A stretch of 64,000 bases of DNA from a virus. The notes below the pieces were generated by a model. That model was not told the DNA's origin. It did no database searches and worked only from the letters and a program-made list of their open reading frames with translations. The translations under genes and the position numbers were made by a program. This document shows positions 12,589 to 28,228 of the stretch, piece after piece (within the stretch, counting starts at the first letter, position 1; every line of letters starts with the position of its first letter). The stretch is from IMG/VR virus record IMGVR_UViG_3300025117_000042, positions 1 to 64,000 of that record. One strand, 5' to 3'.

Positions 12589-14133
12589 ATGAAAGTACGC
12601 ATTGAAAAAGGTATCAGTGGGGGGGAAGTCAGGTTCTTGACACCAGAGAATCCGGCTGAAGCAGCAGAGCTGTACTTTCTGGAGCTTGCTGGGGAGGTGT
12701 CTTCGAATTCTTCCTTTGGGGATTGGAGAGGTGAAACCAAAAAGAGCGAGGTGCAGCAGATAACGATATCAAAAGGGAACCTGCATAAGGAACGGCTTGT
12801 ACTAAGAGATGTAATAGACAAGAGGGGGAGGAAGGCTAAACGATGGGTGTTGATGCACCAAAATCAGGAAAATAGAGATACTAAATTAACCATACAAACT
12901 GATGAGGTAGACTACAGCAAGGATACCAGAGCCTTTGAGTCTATTTCCGAGACTGAGCTACTAAATCAGGCAACACGTAAGGATATATACAGGCAAATGC
13001 AAAGGAACCTGCAAGGGGTTTCTCGTAAGGTGAACGTTCCGAACGAATTGAAAGGCCCAATGGGGGACGAGGCAGTTAGTATAATAGCAGAAGATATGCG
13101 ATCCGAACTGTCGCTGTACACAAGTTGGCTTGCTGGAGATACTACTGACCTGATGCACTTGTATATTAACCAATTCGAAAAAACGCTTAAGGCGGCAGCT
13201 CCTGAGTTTGCTAACAGTAAAGCCTCAGATCTACAAGCTTTGGGTATAGACACGATCCGTAAGCTTATTCACCAGGATATAGAGTCTACACGGCAAACCT
13301 TCTCCGATCATGGAATCAGGCATATCGTCGGAAACATCCTCTACCAGAACAAAATGATTGATGTATTAAACAAAGAAGGTATCCCGGTGACTCCCAAAGA
13401 GAAGCTTATGGGTATGTTTGTCCAGGTGAACCACGATATAGGCTATACGGTGCCTATAGTGCGCTCAGGTGGCAAGAATGGAGCAGTAGCATCTGGTAAG
13501 CATCCGGCATTCTCTGAGAAGGTTTTGAAGGAACAGAAGCATCTGTGGAACGAAGGCAAAATCTTTACCGAAGATGATTATAATAGAATACTTAACATAA
13601 CCAAACTCCATCAGAAGACTACTCTCTCCCTGGAAGATCCTGTCCTGTTCACCACTCAGATTGCCGACAATACCAGCATGTTCAGTAAAGAGAAAATCCC
13701 ACCTCTGTTTCAGTACATAGATGGATCAAGAGAGATACTTACTGATATGGGATTAGCTGCTAAGAGCGGGGATAAAGAGTGGTTTGAACAGTCAAAGACA
13801 GAGCTGTATAAGAGAGTTGATGCTAGTAACTTTAACAAGAATCTGAAAAGAGACTTGAAAGCTGCTGTTGCTTCTATCAATCAAATGACTCCTAAGTTCA
13901 CTATGGGTATTCTTGCCGGTGAGCTTCAAGGTGTGAGCAGTTCTACCGATGCTGTGATAGAAATAAAAGTTAAGCACAATGAGTATGACGCTTTCTTGTC
14001 ACAGTACCTTGATATGGGACAGAAGAAACTGAGAAGCTTACTGTCTGACTATGGAATCACTGAATACAATAAGACTGAATATCGACTTGGTGAACACAAC
14101 AACAAAACGCTAGTCAAAATCGTAGTAGAATAG
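12589..14133 (+). CDS. HD-domain hydrolase with N-terminal K|G sites and basic hairpin (putative capsid cargo)
   Basis: DHGIRH, NHDIGY, H, IADN; N-terminal VRIEKG and ITISKG...LVLRDVIDKRGRKAKRWV. Confidence 0.7.
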   Translation: MKVRIEKGISGGEVRFLTPENPAEAAELYFLELAGEVSSNSSFGDWRGETKKSEVQQITISKGNLHKERLVLRDVIDKRGRKAKRWVLMHQNQENRDTKLTIQTDEVDYSKDTRAFESISETELLNQATRKDIYRQMQRNLQGVSRKVNVPNELKGPMGDEAVSIIAEDMRSELSLYTSWLAGDTTDLMHLYINQFEKTLKAAAPEFANSKASDLQALGIDTIRKLIHQDIESTRQTFSDHGIRHIVGNILYQNKMIDVLNKEGIPVTPKEKLMGMFVQVNHDIGYTVPIVRSGGKNGAVASGKHPAFSEKVLKEQKHLWNEGKIFTEDDYNRILNITKLHQKTTLSLEDPVLFTTQIADNTSMFSKEKIPPLFQYIDGSREILTDMGLAAKSGDKEWFEQSKTELYKRVDASNFNKNLKRDLKAAVASINQMTPKFTMGILAGELQGVSSSTDAVIEIKVKHNEYDAFLSQYLDMGQKKLRSLLSDYGITEYNKTEYRLGEHNNKTLVKIVVE

Positions 14134-15769: not shown

Positions 15770-18700
15770 TTGAAGCTATTTATAAAGTCTGACTACGTGC
15801 GTGTTCAGCATGGCAAGCTTCAGCATGTGCATGATAAGCGTATAAAGCATATCATACCGCTCAAAGGCAGATCTTCTGCATCAGTAAGTCTCCGGTTGGG
15901 TAATGATGGTGCTCTGGACTTCAAAACGATCCTACAGGAGAATCCTAAGCTAATAGATAAGCATGCTCTAGCTGTGCAGGGCTATGTAGGCTTTAAAGCT
16001 AAACAGGGAGAGTCTTCTGAGCAAACTATCAAACGTCTAATAAATCATTTGACTGATAACCTAAGCTGGTTGTATGACCAGATACCGGAAGCAGAGCGCA
16101 AGCAAACAAGACAATGGTACGATGGAGCTAACAAGATAGCTAATGATTGGGCGAAGAAGTATAAGCTGCCAGTGCCTCAAGTTGCCGGTGTAATCGCCTG
16201 TATGTCTCCTCAGCTGGAGTGGTATCAAAACTTGCATCTCGCACAACATATAATAGAAACGTACCAAGGTAAAGACAAGCTCAAATGGGCCGATGGGATG
16301 GCTGAGCAGATCGAACCCAAGGTATTGGCTGAACTTAAGGGAAAAGCCCTGTCTGAGGTCGAGGATGAGGGTTTAAGGGCTATTTGGGTATTGGCTTATA
16401 ACAAGTCTCAGGATAAATCCTCTGTTGATATCTATTCACCTGAAGGTGAAAAGGTAGGACAGCAGGGTCAGACCTACTGGTTCACATCAGCTGCTATAAT
16501 AGCAAAAGCCTGGAACATCCTTGAAGGTAGGCCGATCACAAATAACCTCAGTAAAGCTCACAAAGTAAGGAACTTCTATAACAATATAATAGATCCTAGT
16601 GATGCTGAGAGTGTAACCATTGATACTCATGCTATTGCAGCAGCTTACCTTGCACCTCTGGCTGGCAATGACATTGAAGTGTTACACAACTTTGGTGCTG
16701 CCGCTGGTAAAGGTGAGGTATCACCTGGAACTGCTGCCGGTGTGCTTGGAACATATTACATTGCAGCAGATGCTTATCGTAAAGCCGCACAGAAGGTGGG
16801 TTTACTGCCAAGAGAACTACAATCTATTATATGGGACTTTATCAAGAACAAGTTTGATAAGGGACTCAAAATCAGTAGTGCATCCAGTAAGGAGCTAAAA
16901 AATGCCTGGAGTGAGTATACAGCTGGAAAAAGGAGCCTTGAATCAGTCAGAGCAGAAGTCTCCAAACGATGGAACCAATCCGATTCTAAAGCTTATGGCA
17001 GATCTAAAGCTTCCGATGACAAGGGAAAGCTACATAAAAGTTTGTTTTGGATTGAACGTGAAGGAGAGCGACCTGGGAGCGGAGTTCTTAGCAGAACTAC
17101 CAGATTTACCTTAGCAAAGTCTGATTATATAAGAGTGCGCCTGGGTAGACTTGAGCATGTACATGACAGACGTATACGCAAAGAAAAGCCACAGTCATTT
17201 TATAATGGTCTTACAAAGATAAGCGGCCCATTGGGTAGTAATCCAGGCGGAATATACCAGGACAACAACGGCACAAAGTACTATGTGAAGATCCCGGCTA
17301 ATCAGGACACTGCTATCAATGAGGTAGTAGCCAATAAGCTTTATGAGCTTGCCGGTGTCAAAGTGCCTGAACTTGATCTAATAGATGCCAACGGTAAGCT
17401 GGGTGTGGCAGGTAAATGGATGCAGATGGATGCTGAACGTGTAACTCCTGATAAGGAAGGAGTCTATTCTGGCTTTGTTACTGATGCTTGGCTTGCCAAT
17501 TGGGATGTAGTAGGTATGAGCTACGATAACCTTATGTTAGCTGATGGACAGGCTGTGCGTGTGGACACCGGAGGAGCCTTACTGTACCGAGCCAGGGGAG
17601 AGCGTAAAGGAGCTGCTTTTGGGCCTGCGGTTACTGAGCTGCAAACCTTGCGCGATCCATCCTTGAACGAAACCTCAGCTTCTGTTTTTGCTGGTATTCC
17701 TTTGAGTGCTATTAGAAGTAGTGCTGAAAACGTACTCAATATCCCCAAGAAAGCCATTGTAGACACTGTTAACACCTATGGCTCTAAATGGGATGATATA
17801 ACGAAGCAGCATGTTATTGACACATTGTTGGCAAGGCAAGCTTATATACACAATCTATTCACTACATTTGTACTCAAGTCTGAATATTATAGAGTTCGTA
17901 ACGGTAAACTTGAGTATGTACATGATGGTAGAACAAAGCATCAGGTGTTTCATTACAGTAAGAATCACAATCTTGTTAGGCTTGATCCTACGTACTATGG
18001 AACAGGTATGGCAGGAGGTGAGACTAAACGTAAGAAAACAGATCCTGAGAATTGGGTTGATCGCACTTACTTTTATGTAGGTGAGCACCACACTAAAGAA
18101 GATGGCCTGGGTCAGCATAAGTATATATCAGAGTTCGATCCTAAAGAGATATATGACTTTGCTTCAGATCCAGATAGTCTTCAGTCAACTTCAATAGATT
18201 TCGGGAAGTTCTCTGTTACGAAATACGAAAAGAAGATAAAAGAGGCTGGATACAAAGGTTTTATAGTACATCACCCTCAGCTTGGTAGTGTAATAGCTGC
18301 TTTTTATCCTCAGTCAGTAGATAAGTTGTCGAAAGCTGGGTATATAGCAGTTGACCTGAACAATAGTAAGTTTACTGTCAGTAAATCAGATTATGTCAGG
18401 ATTAGAAACGGTAAACTTGAACATGTACATGATAAGCGTGTTAAGAAGGATAAAAGGTTAGACAGAGCTGTAGCTTCACTGCATAAGTCTATGGATGAGA
18501 TAAAGCATTTGGTAGATCATGAAGAGTGTAGGGTTATAGCACCTGATGGCAAGGTAATTTTCAAGAAAGGTGGAAGCAAGTCTCAAATATCTTTTGTAGA
18601 AGAAGAAATGGCCTTATTCAAAGGTTGCTCTTTTATACATAATCATCCCTCTGGAAGTTCATTCTCACTAGAAGATATAAACTTTGCTATTAAAACAGGA

Positions 18701-18982
18701 ATGAAAGAAATATATGCTGTACATGATGGATTAGTATATAAAATGCATATACCTCAAGGTATATCGGATTTGTATGCTTGGTGGGATACTAAAGGAATTC
18801 TTCTTTATTGGCAATTAGACACAGAGTTAAAGAAAGACTTTACAGCACAGATACAAAGTGGAAAGTTAGCTATAGAAGATGCTAACAAGTTGCACCATCA
18901 TGTCTTGTGGAATAGGTTTACCCATGAGGTTAAGTATGCGTTTAAGGTTGATAGTTTTGTATATAGTAAGGAGACAAGGTAA
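15770..18982 (+). CDS. four-domain effector polyprotein (helical glycosylase-like; HipA/PI3-4K-like kinase; ART-like; JAB), each domain preceded by the same 19-aa motif
   Basis: motif at aa 6, 450, 703, 872; KVRNFYNN..VTIDTHA; GSNPGG..YYVK..NE..NWD..N..RVDTGG; HYS..YFY..AGY.G; E..HNHPSGSSFSLED. Confidence 0.8.
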   Translation: MKLFIKSDYVRVQHGKLQHVHDKRIKHIIPLKGRSSASVSLRLGNDGALDFKTILQENPKLIDKHALAVQGYVGFKAKQGESSEQTIKRLINHLTDNLSWLYDQIPEAERKQTRQWYDGANKIANDWAKKYKLPVPQVAGVIACMSPQLEWYQNLHLAQHIIETYQGKDKLKWADGMAEQIEPKVLAELKGKALSEVEDEGLRAIWVLAYNKSQDKSSVDIYSPEGEKVGQQGQTYWFTSAAIIAKAWNILEGRPITNNLSKAHKVRNFYNNIIDPSDAESVTIDTHAIAAAYLAPLAGNDIEVLHNFGAAAGKGEVSPGTAAGVLGTYYIAADAYRKAAQKVGLLPRELQSIIWDFIKNKFDKGLKISSASSKELKNAWSEYTAGKRSLESVRAEVSKRWNQSDSKAYGRSKASDDKGKLHKSLFWIEREGERPGSGVLSRTTRFTLAKSDYIRVRLGRLEHVHDRRIRKEKPQSFYNGLTKISGPLGSNPGGIYQDNNGTKYYVKIPANQDTAINEVVANKLYELAGVKVPELDLIDANGKLGVAGKWMQMDAERVTPDKEGVYSGFVTDAWLANWDVVGMSYDNLMLADGQAVRVDTGGALLYRARGERKGAAFGPAVTELQTLRDPSLNETSASVFAGIPLSAIRSSAENVLNIPKKAIVDTVNTYGSKWDDITKQHVIDTLLARQAYIHNLFTTFVLKSEYYRVRNGKLEYVHDGRTKHQVFHYSKNHNLVRLDPTYYGTGMAGGETKRKKTDPENWVDRTYFYVGEHHTKEDGLGQHKYISEFDPKEIYDFASDPDSLQSTSIDFGKFSVTKYEKKIKEAGYKGFIVHHPQLGSVIAAFYPQSVDKLSKAGYIAVDLNNSKFTVSKSDYVRIRNGKLEHVHDKRVKKDKRLDRAVASLHKSMDEIKHLVDHEECRVIAPDGKVIFKKGGSKSQISFVEEEMALFKGCSFIHNHPSGSSFSLEDINFAIKTGMKEIYAVHDGLVYKMHIPQGISDLYAWWDTKGILLYWQLDTELKKDFTAQIQSGKLAIEDANKLHHHVLWNRFTHEVKYAFKVDSFVYSKETR
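15785..15841 (+). repeat. KS-hairpin motif A, copy 1 (KSDYVRVQHGKLQHVHDKR)
   Basis: peptide repeat read from translation. Confidence 0.95.
17117..17173 (+). repeat. motif A, copy 2 (KSDYIRVRLGRLEHVHDRR)
   Basis: peptide repeat. Confidence 0.95.
17876..17932 (+). repeat. motif A, copy 3 (KSEYYRVRNGKLEYVHDGR)
   Basis: peptide repeat. Confidence 0.95.
18383..18439 (+). repeat. motif A, copy 4 (KSDYVRIRNGKLEHVHDKR)
   Basis: peptide repeat. Confidence 0.95.
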
Positions 18983-21546
18983 TGTTTATATTAGATGATT
19001 CTGAAATCTTGGAACCTGTGTACAAAAAAGAGGACTTTCCTGAACTATTTGCAGAAGGAAAGAAGGACATAAAGAAGTCAATGGCAGTAACTGTACCTAC
19101 ATCCAAAATCAATCCGATGTTGGTTCCTATACAAAAGGTAGTCCATAAAAAGGGTAAAACTCATACCCAAGTATATTGGGTAAACCCGCATGTTGATACC
19201 AAAGTATTGCTGAACACAAAAAAGGTTGAGATGGCACATGAGCTGGCTAAGCTCGAAACCTTCCCGGTAAAGGATGCATGGAAGAAGTTTATGCATGTTA
19301 CTGAGCCTGTAACGCTCCCTGAAGTTGGGGAGGTCAAGATGAACGTGTCAAGGAGTTTCAGTTTCTCAGAAGAGGGGCTGAACTTTGAGTTCTTCAGTCC
19401 AAATACTAATAGATCAGTCACCTATAGTTTGCCTAAAGGGGATACAGTAAGGCTGGACAGTTTGCACATGAATAATCCAGTTGTAAATAAGCAGATGCTT
19501 ATTGAAAGCTTCTCCTGGCTCAGTAGGCAAGGCATTACAAACGTAAAATATACGCGACCTGTGAACGATACTGCCAATGAGATATCAGCAATGCTTGAGA
19601 ACAGTTTCTCAGCAGTTAAAGATAAAGTTGATAACTATGTTAACTTCTATGTTGATATTACAAAGTATCGTAAAGAAGATAACGTTGAGACATATGCTGA
19701 CTATGCACATGTTAGAAACACAACTGAAAAGGTCATGGAGCTGTACGAGGTAGATGACAGCCGTTCAGCTGTGATTGCCTTTGTAGAGAAACTGTACAAA
19801 GAAGACAAGGATACGTTCATTGCTGTAATAGCTGAGTTGTATGCACTGTCTCCTGCTACAGTTTTAGCTGAAATACACAATATAGTAATAGATAATCCTG
19901 ATTTACGTTACGGCATCTCATCTGTAATAGATTTGTTCAGTACCGGTCATAATATCAGTTTAGCAACAACTTCAGATGTTGTTGAAACAGCAACGTTAGT
20001 ATCAACATTGACTGAAAGTTGGAAAGGTAGCTCAAGATCTTTGGGTGCTCAGCTGTTGCAGTATTATGTAGCAGATCTTACTGGCACTACTAAGCCTTCG
20101 TTTTTCAATCACAATTGTAGTGAGGAGATGTTTAATAGCTTTGTAAAATGGCTACATGGTTCTAACGTAGAAGCTAATATAAAAAGATATGTAAAAGATG
20201 TGTATGAGACTACACAAAAAGAGCTTAAAGCAAAGTATTATGCAGAAAAAAAGCTATCAGAAGAGCCTTCTGATGATTATATGATTACGCTTTACAGGGG
20301 TGTAACTAGCAGCTATAACACATCATCTACCCTGGAGAGCTGGACTGAATCATCAGATGTAGCTTACGACTTTGATGGTTCAGATGTATTTAGAAGAGAC
20401 ATACCTATCAAAGCTGTATACGTGTTCTGGAAGAGTAAGAATTGGCTGCACAAAGAAGTAGGTAGTGTATTTGAGACAGAGAAGGAGCATGTATTGATTA
20501 CTGATATGATACCAGCAGCTTTAATAGAAGATGAAAAGGAAAAGAAATTGACAGCAACAGATCGACTTGCTGAGATAAAAGATCTATTGATTACTATAGC
20601 TGATGCTAATTCTGTCTATTTTCACGCAGGATCTGCTTATGGGGAAGACATAGAGTTACTGAAGTTGGCTATTGTATATGCGGGTGGCGCACATACCAAT
20701 GACCTGAAGAATGCGTTCAATCTGAGTTATGAGGACGCTGAACAGGCATCGGAAGCTATTAATAAGTATTGGAAGAACTATCAGATAGATGAAATGTTGG
20801 ATGAAGCTAAGTACACAGAGCATCCTGAACAGCTTGAAGTTCAGCCTTATGATACTGCTGTAGCTATGCTCAGTCCTAACTTTGTCGTAGATCCACTTAA
20901 CAGACAACATATAATAGACATGATTAATTTTGTAGGTATGGGGAATGTAACAGCACAAGGTATAGCAAACAAGTTGTTACTGCCTGATGACAAAGCCCTG
21001 GAGCTGTATCAGAAGTTAGAAAATAATTGGCACACTATATGGGAAAATACCCAATTCAGTATGGAAGATTCTAAAAAAATGTCTGAAATGGCAATAAGTG
21101 AGGCTATATCAGAGTCAGGTGGGGAAAGCAAATTGCTGTTTGCTGATGAGTTGTCTGAAGTGTGGGCTAAATCATACTTAGATAATCCAGCTAATACCAC
21201 ATATTTTTTTACTACAGAACAGAGAGCAAAGCTTAACTATATATTAGACTACGTACAGGAATACCCAAAGGTAATGCAATCCGGGCTGTGGTCAGATCAA
21301 GCCAAAGATATAATAAACAAGTACAGGGATGCTTTGGCTGAAGAGAACAATATGAAGTCGATTGCAGATTACATAAAGGTAAAGGGTATAGATGACGTTA
21401 AAGAATCTGCGTTAAAAACCCTTTACAATTGGTTAGGCCCAAAAGTAGCTAATCAAACTCATTTGGTACTTGGGATGACAAGTGAGGAAACCGATTCTCT
21501 GTATACAAGGCTTGATGATATGTATGGTGTTTTTGCAGGACTCTAA
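18982..21546 (+). CDS. R-S-ExE ADP-ribosyltransferase domain protein with N-terminal K|S site and hairpin motif B (putative capsid cargo)
   Basis: TLYRGV (20287-20304), ESWT (20335-20346), ETEKE (20473-20487); IKKS...LVPIQKVVHKKGKTHTQVYWV. Confidence 0.7.
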   Translation: MFILDDSEILEPVYKKEDFPELFAEGKKDIKKSMAVTVPTSKINPMLVPIQKVVHKKGKTHTQVYWVNPHVDTKVLLNTKKVEMAHELAKLETFPVKDAWKKFMHVTEPVTLPEVGEVKMNVSRSFSFSEEGLNFEFFSPNTNRSVTYSLPKGDTVRLDSLHMNNPVVNKQMLIESFSWLSRQGITNVKYTRPVNDTANEISAMLENSFSAVKDKVDNYVNFYVDITKYRKEDNVETYADYAHVRNTTEKVMELYEVDDSRSAVIAFVEKLYKEDKDTFIAVIAELYALSPATVLAEIHNIVIDNPDLRYGISSVIDLFSTGHNISLATTSDVVETATLVSTLTESWKGSSRSLGAQLLQYYVADLTGTTKPSFFNHNCSEEMFNSFVKWLHGSNVEANIKRYVKDVYETTQKELKAKYYAEKKLSEEPSDDYMITLYRGVTSSYNTSSTLESWTESSDVAYDFDGSDVFRRDIPIKAVYVFWKSKNWLHKEVGSVFETEKEHVLITDMIPAALIEDEKEKKLTATDRLAEIKDLLITIADANSVYFHAGSAYGEDIELLKLAIVYAGGAHTNDLKNAFNLSYEDAEQASEAINKYWKNYQIDEMLDEAKYTEHPEQLEVQPYDTAVAMLSPNFVVDPLNRQHIIDMINFVGMGNVTAQGIANKLLLPDDKALELYQKLENNWHTIWENTQFSMEDSKKMSEMAISEAISESGGESKLLFADELSEVWAKSYLDNPANTTYFFTTEQRAKLNYILDYVQEYPKVMQSGLWSDQAKDIINKYRDALAEENNMKSIADYIKVKGIDDVKESALKTLYNWLGPKVANQTHLVLGMTSEETDSLYTRLDDMYGVFAGL

Positions 21547-21617: not shown

Positions 21618-23147
21618 ATGTCTAAGTTCAATTTCTGGAACTATGCTGTCAGTAAGGTTTTCGGAAAACAGATTGAAGTAATAGCAGAGAGCAAGGCAGA
21701 TGATTATATTCAGAAAGCATTGGGTGACAACGTAAGAGCCGATCAAAGATCTTGGCTATTAGACATACTCAACGCTCAAACTGCTATGGGATTTAAAGAG
21801 AATCCAGCAGCTATTACATACAATACACTCCGCAAGGTTTCCCGCAAAAACCCTATCATAGCAGCGATTATAGGCACCAGGATAAATCAAGTGTGTTCCT
21901 TCTCCAAACAGGTCGATGTTATGGAGTTTTCTGCCAATAAGCCTATAGGGTTCAAAGTAGTGCATAAGCGTAAGCATCGGGAAGATATGAACGAGGCAGA
22001 GAAGAAGTTTGCAAACGAGCTGGAAGATTTTATTACATACTGTGGCTATACCGATAGATTCAGGACAGGCCGGAAGCGGGATAACTTCACTGACTTCTTA
22101 CGTAAGGTAACAAGGGATCGGCTGGTGTTAGATCAGATGTGCTTTGAACGTGTATTAAACAAAGCGAAAGAACCAGCTGAAATATTTGCTGTGGACGCTG
22201 CTACAATCAGGCTTGCTTCAGAAGAGAGCATGAATGATGGTGTAGGTTATTGTCAGGTTGTCCAGGGTCAGGTTGTGAATGAGTATACCTGGGCTGAAAT
22301 GGCTTTCTGTATCAATAACCCTGTTAGTGATATAAATCAGTACGGATATGGATTTTCAGAGCTTGAGCAGCTGATTTCGGTTGTTACAGCTCTTTTTTAT
22401 TCAGACACGTATAATACAAAGTTCTTCTCTCAGGGGTTGGGTGCTCAAGGCATCTTAAATATCGTTACAAAGGATGGTGCTATTCCCACCGATCTTATGG
22501 AAGCGTTCCGGTCACAGTTCCAGGCTACAGCTGCTGGTGCAGCTAACGCATGGAAGACTCCGATCATGAATGCTGACAAGCTGGATTGGATCAATTTGAA
22601 ACAGTCTAATAAAGATATGGAGTTTGTTAAGTGGGTTGAGTATCTAATAAAACTTGCTTGCGCTATCTATCAGATATCTCCTGAAGAAATCAATTTTGAA
22701 ACCAGAGGTTCTGGTAGTTCTTCGATGTTTGAGTCTAATCCTGAAGGACGGCTTAAATACAGCAAGGACAAAGGGCTAAGACCGCTGCTTACCTTTCTGT
22801 CAGATCATATCACTGAACACTTCGTTGAGCCTTATTCTCTGGATTATATGATGATTTTTACTGGTCTGGATGAAAAGGAAGAGAAGGATGCAGCTGAAAT
22901 CCGTAAAATAGAAGTTGAGTCTTATAAAACTCTTGATGAAGTACGTGCAGAAGCACAACTAGACCCTCTTGGTGAGGAGAATGGCGGTAATCTGGTACTC
23001 AATCCTCAGTATATTACACATAAGAACCAACAGGCCATGATTGAGCAGCAGAAAGAGATGCAAGCCAGCTTGGGTAGTGGTTTTAGTAGTAGCTATGAAG
23101 ACAGTAATAGTGTGAAACGTGGAGTCAAGAGTGGAAAAGACGAATAA
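21618..23147 (+). CDS. portal protein
   Basis: FLRKVTRDRLVLDQMCFE, FAVDAATIR, GYGFSELE, DMEF.KW..YLI...CAIY.I.P.EINF, SKDKGL.PLL, TLDEVR. Confidence 0.95.
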   Translation: MSKFNFWNYAVSKVFGKQIEVIAESKADDYIQKALGDNVRADQRSWLLDILNAQTAMGFKENPAAITYNTLRKVSRKNPIIAAIIGTRINQVCSFSKQVDVMEFSANKPIGFKVVHKRKHREDMNEAEKKFANELEDFITYCGYTDRFRTGRKRDNFTDFLRKVTRDRLVLDQMCFERVLNKAKEPAEIFAVDAATIRLASEESMNDGVGYCQVVQGQVVNEYTWAEMAFCINNPVSDINQYGYGFSELEQLISVVTALFYSDTYNTKFFSQGLGAQGILNIVTKDGAIPTDLMEAFRSQFQATAAGAANAWKTPIMNADKLDWINLKQSNKDMEFVKWVEYLIKLACAIYQISPEEINFETRGSGSSSMFESNPEGRLKYSKDKGLRPLLTFLSDHITEHFVEPYSLDYMMIFTGLDEKEEKDAAEIRKIEVESYKTLDEVRAEAQLDPLGEENGGNLVLNPQYITHKNQQAMIEQQKEMQASLGSGFSSSYEDSNSVKRGVKSGKDE

Positions 23148-24123
23148 CATCACATTTGTAATAGACAAGTCTTACTATACACGCATCCGTCATGGCAAGC
23201 TTGAGCATGTACATGATAATAGAGTGCGTAAGACTCCAGAGAAAAATTCTGATTTGCGTATCACCATTAAAGAACTCAACAGAGCTTTGACTAAAGGCAC
23301 TGTAGGTATAATTTCAGCTGGCAGGAATACTAATAGTGAAAAAGATCTGCAACTGACAGAAGAAGAGATTGAGAAGCGATACGCCGATCTTGAGAATAAG
23401 CTATTAAAAGATGGTAGAGCCTTTATACGGGCAAAAGGTGTATGGGAAGGCGGGGAAGAGCGGTCTTATATTGTAGCTATTCCTAACAAAGACAGAAGTT
23501 ATCTGATAAAGCTTGGTGTCAAGTACAACCAGGATTCAGTTATATTTGTCAACGAAGGCAGGAATGAGTACATCTACTGTACAGGCCCGAACAAAGGTCA
23601 ATGTCATATCGGCAAGAAGTTCGAAGAAGTAGCAGCTGACATACCATCGGGTTACACTGAGATAGATGCAGTCGGTGCTTCACCATATAAGTTTGCTCTT
23701 GACTTCGACTTTGATAATACAAAACCAGTTAGAAAATCTTACGTAGTAGAAATGATTGCGAAGTCAGACTACGTGCGGGTTCGTAACGGTAGGCTTGAGT
23801 ATGTGCATGATACAAGGGTAGCTCATCCGGTTGAACGTCGTTCAGCTGAGTCAGAAATTGAGTTTGATACACAGCTGAAGGTGTGGGATATGGAACTGGA
23901 GAATCTTACGCGGAAAGAGCATGCTGTAGACTTCATGGATGCACAGTCTCTAATAGAGATATCAAAGAAGAAAGCAGATATCTACACTGCCATGATTGCT
24001 GCCCTGGAGCCTAGAGTAAGTAAGATCGAAGATAAGCCTCGCTATGATTTCGACATGCGCGATACTTTGCTGCATGAGATAAAAATTCCACCTAAGCTAC
24101 TGACAGTCAAAGGAGCGGATTAA
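23119..24123 (+). CDS. two-module cargo protein: SAM lyase (T3 SAMase/DUF3293-like) plus small helical domain, each after motif A
   Basis: IISAGR...GVWEGGEERSYIV...LGVKYNQDSVIF...FEEV...GYTEID; start could be GTG 23131 (GGAG RBS). Confidence 0.75.
   Translation: MESRVEKTNNITFVIDKSYYTRIRHGKLEHVHDNRVRKTPEKNSDLRITIKELNRALTKGTVGIISAGRNTNSEKDLQLTEEEIEKRYADLENKLLKDGRAFIRAKGVWEGGEERSYIVAIPNKDRSYLIKLGVKYNQDSVIFVNEGRNEYIYCTGPNKGQCHIGKKFEEVAADIPSGYTEIDAVGASPYKFALDFDFDNTKPVRKSYVVEMIAKSDYVRVRNGRLEYVHDTRVAHPVERRSAESEIEFDTQLKVWDMELENLTRKEHAVDFMDAQSLIEISKKKADIYTAMIAALEPRVSKIEDKPRYDFDMRDTLLHEIKIPPKLLTVKGAD
23167..23223 (+). repeat. motif A, copy 5 (KSYYTRIRHGKLEHVHDNR)
   Basis: peptide repeat. Confidence 0.95.
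23761..23817 (+). repeat. motif A, copy 6 (KSDYVRVRNGRLEYVHDTR)
   Basis: peptide repeat. Confidence 0.95.
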
Positions 24124-25187
24124 TGGATTTTGTAATAGAAAAATCAGTAAGAGCCGGTCTGATTCCTATAAGAAAGACTGTCACTCAAAACGGTAGAACC
24201 TTTCAGAGGACGTACTGGTGTAAACAGAAGGATCTGCAAAGCTTCAATGCTACAGCTCCTGCTGTCGAGTTTCTTGCTGCCAGTATAGAGACTCAGAAAG
24301 AGATGATGGATATTGTTTCACAGCTTGAGGACTATAATCAGGGACTCGCTGCTGAAATATACAACGAAATGCAAAAGAGTGGTGAAACGTCTATTAAAAT
24401 AGCTGATAAGATCGCTAAAGTGTCTGATTGGGTTACTGCCAGGGAAACCAACATGACCACCTTTCTCGCTGGTATGAGACAGCTGCTGAATGAGAAAGGC
24501 AAGATCGACATGGCAGATCTAGCTAAGACCTACCAGGATGTGTCTTATCAGTACCATAAGATGGGCCTGGAGCTTTCCACTGTCAATGCTGAAGGTAAAG
24601 AGAAACCTCTGAAAAAGATGGGAGTCATTCAGGATCTTGTTCCTATGAACTGGACTGATACTGTCAAGGAAGTAGGAGCTGCTTTGCGTGAATCTATTAA
24701 AAACGGTCTGACTACCTTACGTGCTGTATGGGGTAAGCTGGGCCGAGCCAAGATACCTAAACAGCCAGAGGAGCTTGATTACAGGCTGAAGGAGAACAAG
24801 GGTAAGCTGGAAGAGCTGTACGAGGAGTACCAGAAGCAAGCTCCAGATCTACGACCTCCGAAACGTAAGCTCACTGAGGAGCAAAAGCTTGCCCTGGAAG
24901 GTACTCCAGCTCCTGCTCCTAAAGGTGATAATAAGAAGAAATTCACTATCAATCCTGAAGCTCCTATGAAGAAGAAACCTGCAAAGAAAGCTCCAGATAA
25001 CATTGATATTAGCAAAATAAGTTATAAGCGTCCTGAAGATATTACTATGAAAGAGCTTAAAGCTATCAAGAAACAGGCTGAGACACAGTTCAAACAGGTT
25101 GTTGCTGAGTATGGTTCATGGGAGAATGTACCTGAGCATGTTAAACATCTGATTATTTCACTAACGTTAAAGACAGGAGCGAAGTAA
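24123..25187 (+). CDS. putative internal head protein with FVIEK|S and hairpin motif B; helical body, Lys/Pro-rich tail
   Basis: MDFVIEKSVRAGLIPIRKTVTQNGRTFQRTYWC; between portal and protease. Confidence 0.65.
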   Translation: MDFVIEKSVRAGLIPIRKTVTQNGRTFQRTYWCKQKDLQSFNATAPAVEFLAASIETQKEMMDIVSQLEDYNQGLAAEIYNEMQKSGETSIKIADKIAKVSDWVTARETNMTTFLAGMRQLLNEKGKIDMADLAKTYQDVSYQYHKMGLELSTVNAEGKEKPLKKMGVIQDLVPMNWTDTVKEVGAALRESIKNGLTTLRAVWGKLGRAKIPKQPEELDYRLKENKGKLEELYEEYQKQAPDLRPPKRKLTEEQKLALEGTPAPAPKGDNKKKFTINPEAPMKKKPAKKAPDNIDISKISYKRPEDITMKELKAIKKQAETQFKQVVAEYGSWENVPEHVKHLIISLTLKTGAK

Positions 25188-25316: not shown

Positions 25317-26123
25317 ATGAAACTGCATAAACCAGACTTTAAACTGTTCTTTGAATTCGATTGTATAGAAAAAGCTGAGGATGGAGAGAAATCTCGTAGA
25401 ATCTGTGGTTATGCTTCTACTGAGGCTCTGGACAAGCAAGGTGAAATCCTTGTACAGAAGGGGCTGGACTTTACTGACTTCCTGAAGTCTGGTTGGTTCA
25501 ACGATAACCATGATCGTACTACTACCGGTGTCCTGGGCTATCCTACCAAAGTAGAGTATCACGAAGGCAAGGGATGGTATGTTGAAGGCTACATGGTCAA
25601 GGGATACCGGAGGGCTGATGAGATTTGGGAGCTTGCCAATGCTCTGCAAAAGTCTAATAGACGATTGGGATTCTCAGTAGAGGGTAACAACGTAAAACGT
25701 GACTCAGTGCAGACTAACAAGGTATTGAAGTGTAAAGTTACAAATGTAGCTATTACACATTGTCCTGTTAATGCTGAGTGTACGATGGAAGTACTGGCTA
25801 AAAGCTTCTGTAGTCACTGTGAATCAGAAAAATGCATTGAGTGTAACGCTGATTGTGTTAAGTCTCTTGAGGCTGGATACGAGCAGTCAACCGATATGGA
25901 AGGTGGCGCAGCACTAAGAAAACAGAGCATTGACGGTGAATGTAAATGTCAGAAGGAAGGCAGCACTTGCAAGAAATGTAATAAAAAAACTGACAAGTCC
26001 ATGTTATCGTATAAAGAAGCAATGGACGTAATAGTAAATCGAGGGTATGATAAGAATCATGCCGAGAAGATATTATCACGTCTGGATGAACTAGGTTACT
26101 TTGAGACAAAAGTAGAAGAATAA
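25317..26123 (+). CDS. prohead (maturation) protease, HK97/assemblin-like fold
   Basis: GYASTEALDKQGE, NDNH, LGFSVEG, VAITHCPVN; position between portal and scaffold. Confidence 0.92.
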   Translation: MKLHKPDFKLFFEFDCIEKAEDGEKSRRICGYASTEALDKQGEILVQKGLDFTDFLKSGWFNDNHDRTTTGVLGYPTKVEYHEGKGWYVEGYMVKGYRRADEIWELANALQKSNRRLGFSVEGNNVKRDSVQTNKVLKCKVTNVAITHCPVNAECTMEVLAKSFCSHCESEKCIECNADCVKSLEAGYEQSTDMEGGAALRKQSIDGECKCQKEGSTCKKCNKKTDKSMLSYKEAMDVIVNRGYDKNHAEKILSRLDELGYFETKVEE

Positions 26124-26147: not shown

Positions 26148-26771
26148 ATGGCTGGTGAAGAAAAAGTTATCGCTCAGGATAAACTGGAAAAAGCTCTTGA
26201 AGGTCTGGATGAGCTTTTGAAAAGTGAAAAACCTGTCGATGACAAAGAAGAAAAAAAGGGCGAAGTAGAAGAAACAGAGGAAAAATCCTTTGCCAAAGTT
26301 GCTGAGGAAAATGAAACTCTGAATAAAAGCATGGATGTTGCTCCTTTCCTTGCCGAGCTGGTGAATGTAATTGGTGAGCACATGGACAACTCCGCAGCTT
26401 CCCTCAGTAAGTCAATGGTAGAGCAGAGAGAAAGTCAGGCTAAGTTCAACGAGAATCTGGTAAAGTCTCTGAAAGAACTTGGTGATGCACTTCTTTCTAT
26501 TACAAAACGTCAGGATGAACTTGAAAAAGAGCCTGTCGGTGTTAAGAAATCAATCACAGCCAAACCGGTTGAACGTCAATTCGCAAAATCTGGTGAGGAA
26601 GAAGGACAGGAACAGAGACTCACGAAGTCAATGGTTGCCAGTAAGATCACTGACCTGATTATCAAAGGCGAAATTGTTGGCGGTACTCCTGTTACTCAGG
26701 CCGAGCTTACCAAGTTTGAAGCAACCGGCCAGATGCGCCCTGAACTGAGAGAACTTTTCGTAAAAAAATAA
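26148..26771 (+). CDS. scaffolding protein
   Basis: acidic coiled-coil between protease and MCP; eight [LVF]xK[SA] sites. Confidence 0.8.
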   Translation: MAGEEKVIAQDKLEKALEGLDELLKSEKPVDDKEEKKGEVEETEEKSFAKVAEENETLNKSMDVAPFLAELVNVIGEHMDNSAASLSKSMVEQRESQAKFNENLVKSLKELGDALLSITKRQDELEKEPVGVKKSITAKPVERQFAKSGEEEGQEQRLTKSMVASKITDLIIKGEIVGGTPVTQAELTKFEATGQMRPELRELFVKK

Positions 26772-26809: not shown

Positions 26810-28228
26810 ATGTTTGAGAATGACGTTGAAGGATTTGGGATTGGTACTTCGCAGGATGTAGCAGAGCTTAACAAAGCTTTGACTGCTGGTTACGAAGAAA
26901 CCACAAGCATGACCGGTGGTGCGGCTCTGCGTGTTCAATCCCTGGAAAACACCCTTAAGCTTCTTACTTTCCGTGAAGACCACATGGTCATGTGGAAAGA
27001 CATTTCGAAACTCCCGGCTTACAGTACTGTTGAAGAATACAGTCAGCAGACTTCTGTAGGTAGCGACAATCCTGGGTTCACAGGCGAAGGTGTTGCGCCG
27101 GAAGAAGATGATTCTGGATATGCCCGTAAAGCATCCCTGGTTAAATTCCTTGGGACTACCCGCAAAATTACGCATCCGATGCAGTTGGTACGTACAATCA
27201 ATGGTGATGCAGTTGCACGTGAATCGACCAACGGTATCCTCAAAGTAATGCGTGATGCCGAATTCGGTCTGCTTTGGGGTAACAGTGATCTTGTATACAC
27301 TGCTGCTGGTACTACTCCTGAAGGTCTTGAGTGGGATGGCTTGAATGTACTGATCGACGCAACTAACGACCTTGACCTTTCCAATAGGAACTTGGAAGAG
27401 GGCGACTTTACAACTATGGGTGAAACCATTGCTAATAGCTTTGGCTACATCAATCGTTGTTACGTCCCTAATAGTGTAGCATCCACTCTGGATGTTTCCT
27501 TGCTACCTAAAGAGCGTATCGCCCTTCCTGGTGCAAACGGAATGGAAGTCGGCACCAACGTAGGATCTGTAAAAACTTCCTTCGGTAAAATTGCTGTTCG
27601 TCCTTCGTTGTTCATGGGGGCTGCTCTTACTGCTGGTCGTTCCCCGAAGAAAACCCCTCCGGCTGCTGCTACTTCCACCAAAGCTCCTGCTGCTCCAGCT
27701 TCCATAGCTGCTAGCTCTCTGACAGGTACTGATGGTAGATTCCGCGCAGCTCAGGTTGGTGTATGCACTTTTAAAGCCACCGCCTGTAACAGATACGGAG
27801 AGTCTGCTCCTACAGCTGCCACTAGCAACGTAACTGTTGGGGCTGGTGATGTTGCCAAACATATTCCTTTGGCAATTACAAACAGCGCATCGTCTGAGAC
27901 AGTTATTCCTGACTATTTCAACATCTACTGTTCTCCGGTAGGCACCGCAGCTTGGTATCTCGTTGCTTCCGTACCTTGTACTGATAAGACCAATAGTGGT
28001 ACAGGCGCATCTTATAACTATACTGGTTATATCATGCCAAACACTGCTATCTGTTTTGCTGGTCAGTTTGACAGTGAAATTCTGGTATTCAAACAGTTGG
28101 CTCCGATCATGAAAATGGACTTGGCAGTAATTGAGCCTTCCTATCGTTTCATGATTCTGCTGTACGGTGTTCCTCAGCTGTTTGCGCCTAAAAAACTTAT
28201 GCGTGTTATCAACGTCAAAGATTATTAA
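26810..28228 (+). CDS. major capsid protein (Herelleviridae-like, with Ig-like insertion)
   Basis: KALTAGY...GGAALRVQSLE, AYSTVEEY, VKFLG, EWDGL, LAPIMKMDLA...FMILLYG. Confidence 0.95.
   Translation: MFENDVEGFGIGTSQDVAELNKALTAGYEETTSMTGGAALRVQSLENTLKLLTFREDHMVMWKDISKLPAYSTVEEYSQQTSVGSDNPGFTGEGVAPEEDDSGYARKASLVKFLGTTRKITHPMQLVRTINGDAVARESTNGILKVMRDAEFGLLWGNSDLVYTAAGTTPEGLEWDGLNVLIDATNDLDLSNRNLEEGDFTTMGETIANSFGYINRCYVPNSVASTLDVSLLPKERIALPGANGMEVGTNVGSVKTSFGKIAVRPSLFMGAALTAGRSPKKTPPAAATSTKAPAAPASIAASSLTGTDGRFRAAQVGVCTFKATACNRYGESAPTAATSNVTVGAGDVAKHIPLAITNSASSETVIPDYFNIYCSPVGTAAWYLVASVPCTDKTNSGTGASYNYTGYIMPNTAICFAGQFDSEILVFKQLAPIMKMDLAVIEPSYRFMILLYGVPQLFAPKKLMRVINVKDY

Follow-up and report, generated by a model that had tools for sequence, protein, structure and literature searches.

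The window analysed here, 64,000 nucleotides of the IMG/VR virus record IMGVR_UViG_3300025117_000042 (positions 1 to 64,000), contains a gene, P0001, that encodes a string of four unrelated enzyme-like domains, each headed by a copy of a ~25-amino-acid (aa) element that we call motif A: a hydrophobic-x-Lys↓Ser site, where the arrow marks the putative cut, followed by a ~20-aa basic β-hairpin. An earlier note on this DNA had described a four-domain string carrying copies of motif A, encoded on the + strand at 15770-18982, and this open reading frame (ORF) is real. On balance, and with modest confidence, we favor the explanation that P0001 is a capsid-loaded precursor of multiple effectors, built from four cassettes that each comprise a site, a hairpin and an enzyme-like domain. 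P0001 is a polyvalent protein in the sense of Iyer et al. 2017 (PMC5512222), and the note's description of a multi-enzyme string of that kind, with domains parted by disordered linkers, is supported.

Motif A and the predicted cut sites

The P0001 gene starts with a TTG codon located 8 nt 3′ of a GAGGGAG ribosome-binding site (RBS), a position that places copy 1 of motif A at the extreme N-terminus of the protein, and its stop codon overlaps the ATG of the next gene, P0085, as TAATG. Four copies of motif A, with the hairpin consensus SDYVRVRNGKLEHVHD.R, were located in P0001, first by a regular expression and then by a hidden Markov model (HMM) derived from those copies; their K↓S pairs lie at aa 6↓7, 450↓451, 703↓704, and 872↓873. 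In six frames of the whole 103,540-bp genome, the HMM found two further copies in the protein P0002, and none outside P0001 and P0002. The gene, its motif copies and the additional sites in its linkers, with D1 to D4 denoting the domains and L001 a related phage described below, are:

15770..18982, + strand: putative cargo polyprotein gene P0001, 1,070 aa, TTG start, RBS GAGGGAG
15779..15841, + strand: motif A copy 1, FIK↓S plus hairpin, aa 4-24; AlphaFold2 strands 7-13 and 16-22 at a predicted local distance difference test (pLDDT) score of 43-61
17030..17041, + strand: extra site LHK423↓S424 (aa 421-424) in the disordered linker after D1; LRK↓S in L001
17111..17173, + strand: motif A copy 2, LAK↓S plus hairpin, aa 448-468
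17870..17932, + strand: motif A copy 3, VLK↓S plus hairpin, aa 701-721, strands in the AlphaFold2 model
18326..18361, + strand: extra site LSK855↓A856 (aa 853-856), followed by GYIAVDLN
18377..18439, + strand: motif A copy 4, VSK↓S plus hairpin, aa 870-890, strands in the AlphaFold2 model
18479..18490, + strand: third extra site LHK906↓S907 (aa 904-907), between hairpin 4 and D4

The extra sites at aa 421-424 and 853-856 had been read by the earlier note and are both present; the LHK↓S at aa 904-907 is a site beyond those.

L001 is a syntenic relative of 102.8 kb whose structural proteins are 64-91% identical to those of this phage. Across 13 copies of motif A from the two phages, K6, Y9, R11, V20, and H21 are invariant, G15, E18, D22, and R24 are nearly so, and P3 of the K-S/A pair is hydrophobic. 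The hairpin is basic, with a net charge of +2 to +5 and two to four His residues. Of the residues that are identical between copies, about half are encoded by different codons, and exact matches in the DNA extend to no more than 6-17 nt, so selection acts on the motif A peptide; the copies are conserved as protein rather than as DNA and do not reflect recent duplication or gene conversion. AlphaFold predicts a β-hairpin in three of the four copies (copy 1, and copies 3 and 4 in a second model) with pLDDT 36-61, and copy 2, which falls in a disordered tail in the first model, was modelled as coil. The possibility that the hairpin turn cleaves itself at Asn-Gly was set aside, N14 not being conserved.

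The sites at the head of each hairpin recur in the phage's own head proteins, which are encoded shortly 3′ of P0001:

25317..26123, + strand: prohead (head maturation) protease, the proposed processing enzyme (phrog_1028, E 1.9e-61)
26148..26771, + strand: scaffold, 207 aa, with seven hydrophobic-x-K-S sites, mostly kept in L001
26810..28228, + strand: major capsid protein (MCP) with the candidate maturation site LNK22↓A23, identical in L001

Enrichment is highest in the scaffold, which contains seven hydrophobic-x-K-S sites against 0.54 expected, a count reached by none of 300 shuffles, and the observed numbers also exceed expectation in P0001 (6 vs 1.9), the protease (3 vs 0.4), and P0002 (3 vs 0.45). 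All six strict sites of P0001 fall within motif A or disordered linkers and none inside a folded domain, and every inter-domain linker of the protein has a hydrophobic-x-K↓S/A site. The cut sites are kept in L001 even though the scaffold is only 66% identical. P0001 itself matches no peptidase family in Pfam or PHROGs. Taken together, the enrichment in the scaffold, the K22↓A23 site of the MCP, and the sites in every linker of P0001 make the adjacent prohead protease the best reading of what would cut P0001. The predicted fragments are aa 7-423 (46.5 kDa), 451-703 (27.9 kDa), 704-855 (17.6 kDa), and 907-1070 (18.9 kDa), plus short spacers. Motif A had been taken in the earlier note as punctuation between domains; a protease-like site does stand at each junction, but the motif is more than punctuation, in that its hairpin would stay on the downstream domain and also heads single-domain proteins.

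The retention of the hairpin after a K↓S cut implies a role beyond cutting, and together with its basic, His-containing composition would also suit an unprocessed polyvalent protein that is packaged or expressed, and functions, as a single 120-kDa chain in which motif A serves as an inter-domain structural or nucleic-acid-binding module, a basic β-ribbon arm. High-GC variants of the hairpin (R..DPRTGK.E.V) resemble the β-arm turn of HU/IHF. Many polyvalent proteins have no proven processing (PMC5512222). We nevertheless consider an unprocessed P0001 rather unlikely, since an invariant K-S/A with a hydrophobic P3 precedes every hairpin, as in the scaffold sites, spacers are flanked by extra sites, and one copy of the motif stands at the very start of the protein, with no preceding domain that would call for a spacer. 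In addition, the neighboring probable ADP-ribosyltransferase (ART) protein, P0085, keeps its sites in both its separate form and its fused form in L001.

The four domains and their arrangement in a related phage

The four domains of P0001 differ in how far their identity can be taken:

15917..16996, + strand: D1, DUF7178 (Pfam E 4e-30), HhH-GPD glycosylase-like fold, aa 50-409
17207..17860, + strand: D2, kinase-like (HipA/PI3-4K-like) by leads only, aa ~480-697
17933..18325, + strand: D3, probable ART fold, aa 722-852, with invariant H728, Y767, and E820
18488..18979, + strand: D4, JAB/RadC-like signature HNHPSGSSFSLED, aa 907-1070

The HhH-GPD assignment of D1 is supported at the level of fold. 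The sequence strings on which the note had based it (WYDGAN..SPQ..W..N, KVRNFYNN, VTIDTHA, and ELQSIIW) are all present, and an AlphaFold model built from a 52-sequence alignment (pLDDT ~90, predicted template modeling (pTM) score 0.80) has the two-lobed helical fold of the HhH-GPD superfamily, which includes endonuclease III (EndoIII), OGG, AlkA, and AGOG. In VIA-align, the 22 best-scoring rows (Z 8.9-4.4) consist entirely of HhH-GPD glycosylases and the related queuine-salvage enzyme QNG1, with unrelated rows at 4.3 or below; the scores include Tm1821 at Z 8.9 (root-mean-square deviation 3.9, 182 aligned), DUF2419 at 8.3, AGOG at 7.0, and EndoIII at 6.6-7.0. Foldseek also gave AGOG as its best match, a weak one (E 0.18). 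The invariant K265 and D285 (TIDTHA) fall on K120 and D138 (VDTH) of E. coli EndoIII (Nth) in the sole hhalign segment, which is not significant (probability 0.3%). Members of the superfamily have a catalytic Asp after the HhH element, joined by a Lys in the bifunctional ones. By sequence, D1 has no Pfam HhH-GPD match and no PDB match. Over 100 of its homologs are stand-alone proteins, and many relatives lie within large polyvalent proteins of uncultured phages. The first AlphaFold model has aa 50-409 folded and aa 30-45 and 409-481 disordered, in agreement with the domain boundaries of the earlier note.

For D2, the note's kinase-like reading survives as a lead only. Its invariant residues occur in kinase-like order (G14/S15/G18, K32, E43, D97..N102.D104, and D124.G126, for the pattern G-loop/K/E/D..N.D/D.GG), and weak leads come from Atlas (HipA_2/PI3_PI4, 0.92) and Pfam (HipA_2, E 0.06). 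Most D2 homologs are embedded in minor capsid proteins together with MuF (PF04233) and ART domains. A PDB sequence search also gave a weak match of P0001 aa 650-682 to the RyR repeat (E 7e-5 to 0.01).

D3 is weakly supported as an ART fold, as the note had proposed. H728, Y767, and E820 are invariant in five sequences, and the top six VIA rows (NatT, VPA0770, MbcT, AcrIF11, ParT, and RES; Z 5.2-4.1) are all of ART fold, AcrIF11 being an anti-CRISPR protein and the others toxins, from a poor model with a mean pLDDT of 45. This second AlphaFold model, of aa 699-1070 from a five-sequence alignment, does not resolve the fold of D4. D3 is 75% identical in L001, and three other viral contigs have homologs, without motif A, within giant polyvalent ORFs. 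D3 in other phages is preceded by G.PV..DG...L.H[FW]S (contigs L006, L007, and L008:2920-3000), which MAFFT pairs with the second half of motif A. The likeness could be chance, or it could be a hint that the hairpin replaces a native N-terminal hairpin of D3.

D4 is JAB-like at the level of its motif. The signature is one residue short of RadC spacing, and HNHPSG..S..D aligns to E. coli YicR (RadC-like) over just 8-11 residues; the JAB label of the earlier note thus holds for the motif and finds no Pfam match, RadC included. Atlas scores are 0.82 for Prok-JAB and 0.80 for RadC, and D4 shares 40% identity with the C-terminal domain of P0086, a Phage_min_cap2 fusion protein. Searches of Pfam up to E 10 assigned no family to D2, D3, or D4, and no usable match came from sequence searches of the PDB, whether with P0001, D2, D3, and D4 as queries or with D1 and D2 profiles.

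L001 carries these cassettes as well, in another order and with other members. With "tag" standing for motif A, P0001 reads tag-D1, tag-D2, tag-D3, tag-D4, stop, P0085, and a 1,923-aa ORF of L001 reads tag-ParB-like, tag-D2, tag-D3-HAD-like, tag-D1, followed by the P0085 homolog fused in frame. D1 is therefore first in P0001 and last in L001, the JAB domain is missing from L001, and the ParB-like domain (DGHHR; Pfam ParBc_2, E 0.003) and HAD-like segment are missing from P0001. The P0001 and L001 segments are 55-62% identical, and the break-points fall at motif A, in line with the note's suggestion of domain swaps at motif boundaries. The HAD-like segment after D3 is headed by LTK↓S without a hairpin, and the junction between D1 and the P0085 homolog keeps LRK↓S and VVK↓S. 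Just before motif A copy 4 of P0001, the string GYIAVDLN (window 18338-18361) corresponds to the start, the DxDxT-type motif region, of a HAD-like cassette; L001 has this cassette intact in the equivalent position (~L001:9737-9994), and the string is the vestige of it in P0001. Shuffled cassettes, and the same sites in the fused and the separate ART protein, are as expected if the cassettes are independent units that are cut apart anyway.

Differences in cassette order and content with break-points at the motif would also be seen if motif A worked as the VENN, PT, or Rhs-type motifs do in polymorphic toxins, as a module for demarcation or self-processing, with release through autoproteolysis, the C-terminal JAB domain, or a protease of the host in place of the prohead protease. 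The metal-protease-like HNHPSG signature at the C-terminus of P0001 would suit that alternative, and H21-D22 of the hairpin could in principle be catalytic. We regard it as improbable, because L001 has the motif and no JAB domain, P0002 and single-domain proteins bear the motif without any peptidase, and the site fits the pattern of the scaffold and MCP. Nor is the 6-17 nt of nucleotide identity between copies long enough for efficient homologous exchange, and RadC-type JAB domains are predicted by Iyer et al. (PMC5512222) to act on nucleic acids and not as processing peptidases.

The head-gene neighborhood and other tagged proteins

The window is the first part of a phage contig of 103,540 bp whose ends overlap by 165 bp, with a CheckV completeness of 100% and nearly all genes on the + strand. 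The MCP is ~40% identical to the MCPs of SPO1- and CP-51-type Herelleviridae, and the source is most likely a lytic myophage with a distantly Herelleviridae-like capsid. P0001 lies in the head module, shortly 5′ of the genes for portal, protease, scaffold, and MCP, all on the same strand, and the gene order is metallophosphoesterase, two small ORFs, P0001, P0085, portal, P0002, a 354-aa protein, head maturation protease, scaffold, MCP. A 514-aa ORF at window 12589-14133, kept in L001 (513 aa) and without a Pfam or PHROG match, sits where the large terminase might be expected. In the protease, a C-terminal region (aa 191-204, STDMEGGAALRKQS, window 25887-25928) resembles aa 31-44 of the MCP (TTSMTGGAALRVQS, window 26900-26941), and both segments are kept in L001; the repeated segment may be a mimicry of the capsid protein for co-assembly into the prohead.

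A location among head genes could be incidental, as could the K-S dipeptides, if P0001 were instead a multi-enzyme protein of the cytoplasm, produced either early or late during infection. Small genes of unknown role do occupy the first 12 kb of the window, and the K-S statistic has one false positive, a helicase. There is little likelihood of this, in our view, given the tight, translationally coupled position between head-region genes and the portal gene, the synteny kept in L001, the relatives of its domains on MuF or minor-capsid carriers, and the presence of the same tag on P0002, the protein encoded directly after the portal gene. Two neighbors that share sites or tags with P0001 are:

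18982..21546, + strand: P0085, 854 aa, with a leader ending IKK↓S, a second hairpin type, and R-S-E ART motifs
23119..24123, + strand: P0002, 334 aa, comprising motif A, an S-adenosylmethionine (SAM)-lyase-like domain, motif A, and a C-terminal helical domain

The SAM-lyase-like domain of P0002 matches PF23780 (E 1.5e-8), and a metagenomic homolog, P0074, consists of the tag and the SAM-lyase half only. The slot after the portal gene is the usual place of MuF, and in P0002 a ~90-aa helical domain follows the second tag. The ART motifs of P0085 (LYRG, STLESW, and EKEHV) come without a Pfam or PHROG match (window 18982-21546; L001:11390-13831). P0085 (19069-19182) and the 354-aa protein encoded between P0002 and the protease (24135-24221) each have, close to the N-terminus, a K↓S site and after it a second type of basic hairpin (..PI[QR]K.V...G[KR]T....YW); their leaders end in ..IKK↓S and ..IEK↓S, respectively. 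The two proteins are unrelated outside this hairpin.

Motif A is rare. Among 1.84 billion cluster representatives, its profile matched just 12 proteins at E <= 1e-3: two from this phage, two translations of repeat DNA, and eight others. P0077 and P0081 were set aside as motif A proteins, being translations of repeated DNA (LKSDYVRIE three times). In the eight others the tag is N-terminal or between domains, hydrophobic-x-K↓S precedes the hairpin in every case (8/8), and the protein bodies are otherwise unrelated; they include a SAM-lyase-like singleton and a 766-aa protein with two to three copies. Single-domain proteins headed by motif A are P0074 (SAM-lyase-like), P0075, P0078, P0082, and P0083. 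The motif was not found in 50,697 deposited phage genomes, and a search for more loci in IMG/VR (by motif, portal, protease, P0078, and P0080), JGI metagenomes, and GTDB genomes yielded only L001 and a fragment, L002. The tag cassette was not found in 70 other polyvalent proteins bearing D1 or D2, and in PHROGs a weak match to motif A came from phrog_21154 (47 positions), a family of unknown function. Upstream of K↓S, the stand-alone tagged proteins P0074, P0075, and P0083 and the product of L001:17629-17931 have a common leader, ..LDDY.D.VI.KGF.., which the P0085 leader MFILDDSEIL.. (window 18982-19030) resembles. This leader may be a second, removable address element.

Comparison with known systems and the proposed role of the hairpin

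Packaging and processing are predicted for polyvalent proteins (Iyer, Burroughs, Anand, de Souza, and Aravind 2017, PMC5512222). P0001 is alike in that a single polypeptide, encoded beside virion genes, joins at least two unrelated domains of effector or enzyme type, and it shares with them both domain types (ART, kinase, and RadC-JAB, with ParB in L001) and actual homologs, relatives of D1, D2, and D3 being found in large polyvalent proteins of other phages. It differs in lacking their frequent, non-obligatory zincin-like metallopeptidase (MPTase) and in lacking MuF, and a term search of the available text of PMC5512222 did not find a cassette of cut site plus hairpin like that before every P0001 domain. 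A further comparison is with MuF polymorphic toxins (Jamet et al. 2017, PMC5576092) and effectors fused to MuF (SPP1 gp7/Phage_min_cap2), head proteins on which homologs of D2 and D4 are C-terminal passengers. The presumed logic is similar, with a head-carried effector delivered with the DNA, but the place of the carrier domain is taken in P0001 by the 25-aa tag. Neither MuF (PF04233) nor Phage_min_cap2 (PF06152) had a match in P0001 or in six frames of the complete genome.

The T4 internal proteins IPI-III and Alt are loaded into the prohead by an N-terminal tag and cut by gp21 (PMC5512222, PMC10052503). T4 targeting resembles the arrangement proposed here in that an N-terminal peptide brings non-structural proteins, including an ART, into the prohead, and the head protease then cuts them at a short hydrophobic-x-charged site that it also uses on scaffold and capsid proteins. 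The T4 tag is single in each protein and is removed, whereas the P0001 hairpin, which occurs four times in the chain, follows the cut and would be retained: the N-terminal site is at aa 6↓7 and the conserved part of the tag lies after it. The sites differ as well (L/I-x-E↓ in T4, hydrophobic-x-K↓S/A in P0001). The gp4 protease of HK97 cuts gp5 after Lys103, before Ser104, and HK97 is similar in that its head protease is of the assemblin type and makes a maturation cut between Lys and Ser; it is not known to have tagged enzymatic cargo. In the giant phages phiKZ, 201phi2-1, and SPN3US, the prohead protease processes many internal head and ejection proteins, and it does so at a short motif found repeatedly in their propeptides (PMC10052503). 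Those cuts remove and degrade N-terminal propeptides (13/14 sites, PMC10052503), and neither the separation of an enzyme chain nor a common hairpin tag is described there. By analogy, P0001 would be closest in its working to the tagged, gp21-processed internal proteins and Alt of T4 and to the protease-processed ejection proteins of giant phages. It differs from them in its repeated, retained hairpin tag, its Lys↓Ser joint, and its lack of a carrier or peptidase domain.

As a capsid-loaded precursor, P0001 would enter the prohead during head assembly, as would the tagged SAM-lyase protein P0002 and the ART protein near the portal gene. The prohead protease, which would also trim the MCP after K22 and shred the scaffold at similar sites, would then cut its disordered linkers. 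About four proteins would result, HhH-GPD glycosylase-like (46.5 kDa), kinase-like (27.9 kDa), ART-like (17.6 kDa), and JAB-like (18.9 kDa), of which the first three would keep the hairpin at their N-termini. The released enzymes would stay in the capsid, enter the next host with the DNA, and act early on host or defense targets. The hairpin would be a portable cargo tag, with a part in loading, retention, DNA binding, or ejection, in place of the MuF or minor-capsid carrier on which the same effector domains ride elsewhere. We propose this role because the hairpin heads single-domain proteins, and because D2 and D4 are found elsewhere on MuF or min_cap2 carriers that are missing from this genome.

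Several points weigh against this explanation. Motif A with its rarity and its conservation as protein, the domain architecture, the enrichment of sites, and the shuffled cassettes are seen in the sequences; the packaging and cleavage of P0001, and with them the note's release of single enzymes, as well as its injection and the role of the hairpin, are steps that we infer. The protease specificity, hydrophobic-x-K↓S, is suggested by sequence statistics, and these are not clean, since a DnaB-like helicase outside the head module has five sites against 0.82 expected, one of them the Walker A GKS; the helicase gene (67638-68966, outside the window) was rejected as cargo, its score being a chance K-S false positive. 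The hairpin structure is a low-confidence prediction (pLDDT 36-61). Because a K↓S cut leaves the hairpin on the downstream domain, and because the scaffold and MCP sites have no hairpin, cleavage does not explain the conservation of the hairpin. Finally, the cassette comparison covers one related genome, L001.

A tentative extension, possible rather than probable in our estimate, is that the hairpin and its K↓S joint form a self-sufficient, transferable tag for capsid loading and delivery that replaces carriers such as MuF. Whatever domain followed the tag would be packaged, cut free by the head protease, and injected, and phages of this clade would build and reshuffle their injected arsenals of anti-restriction, ART, kinase, and glycosylase functions one cassette at a time.

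Phages are known to inject a few proteins with their DNA, among them T4 Alt and the T4 internal proteins, P1 Dar, and the N4 RNA polymerase, and to our knowledge the addressing of diverse enzymes to the capsid is understood for very few injected proteins. At the P0001 locus, site, hairpin, and domain form a readable grammar, which comes with predictions for the specificity of the protease and the masses of the fragments and with a natural swap in a relative. If the explanation that we favor is true, it would account for the conversion of polyvalent proteins into separate enzymes, would provide a short tag with which chosen proteins could be loaded into the heads of laboratory phage strains, and would pick out likely early-acting enzymes of host takeover or anti-defense, including a glycosylase-fold protein of the large unknown-function family DUF7178.

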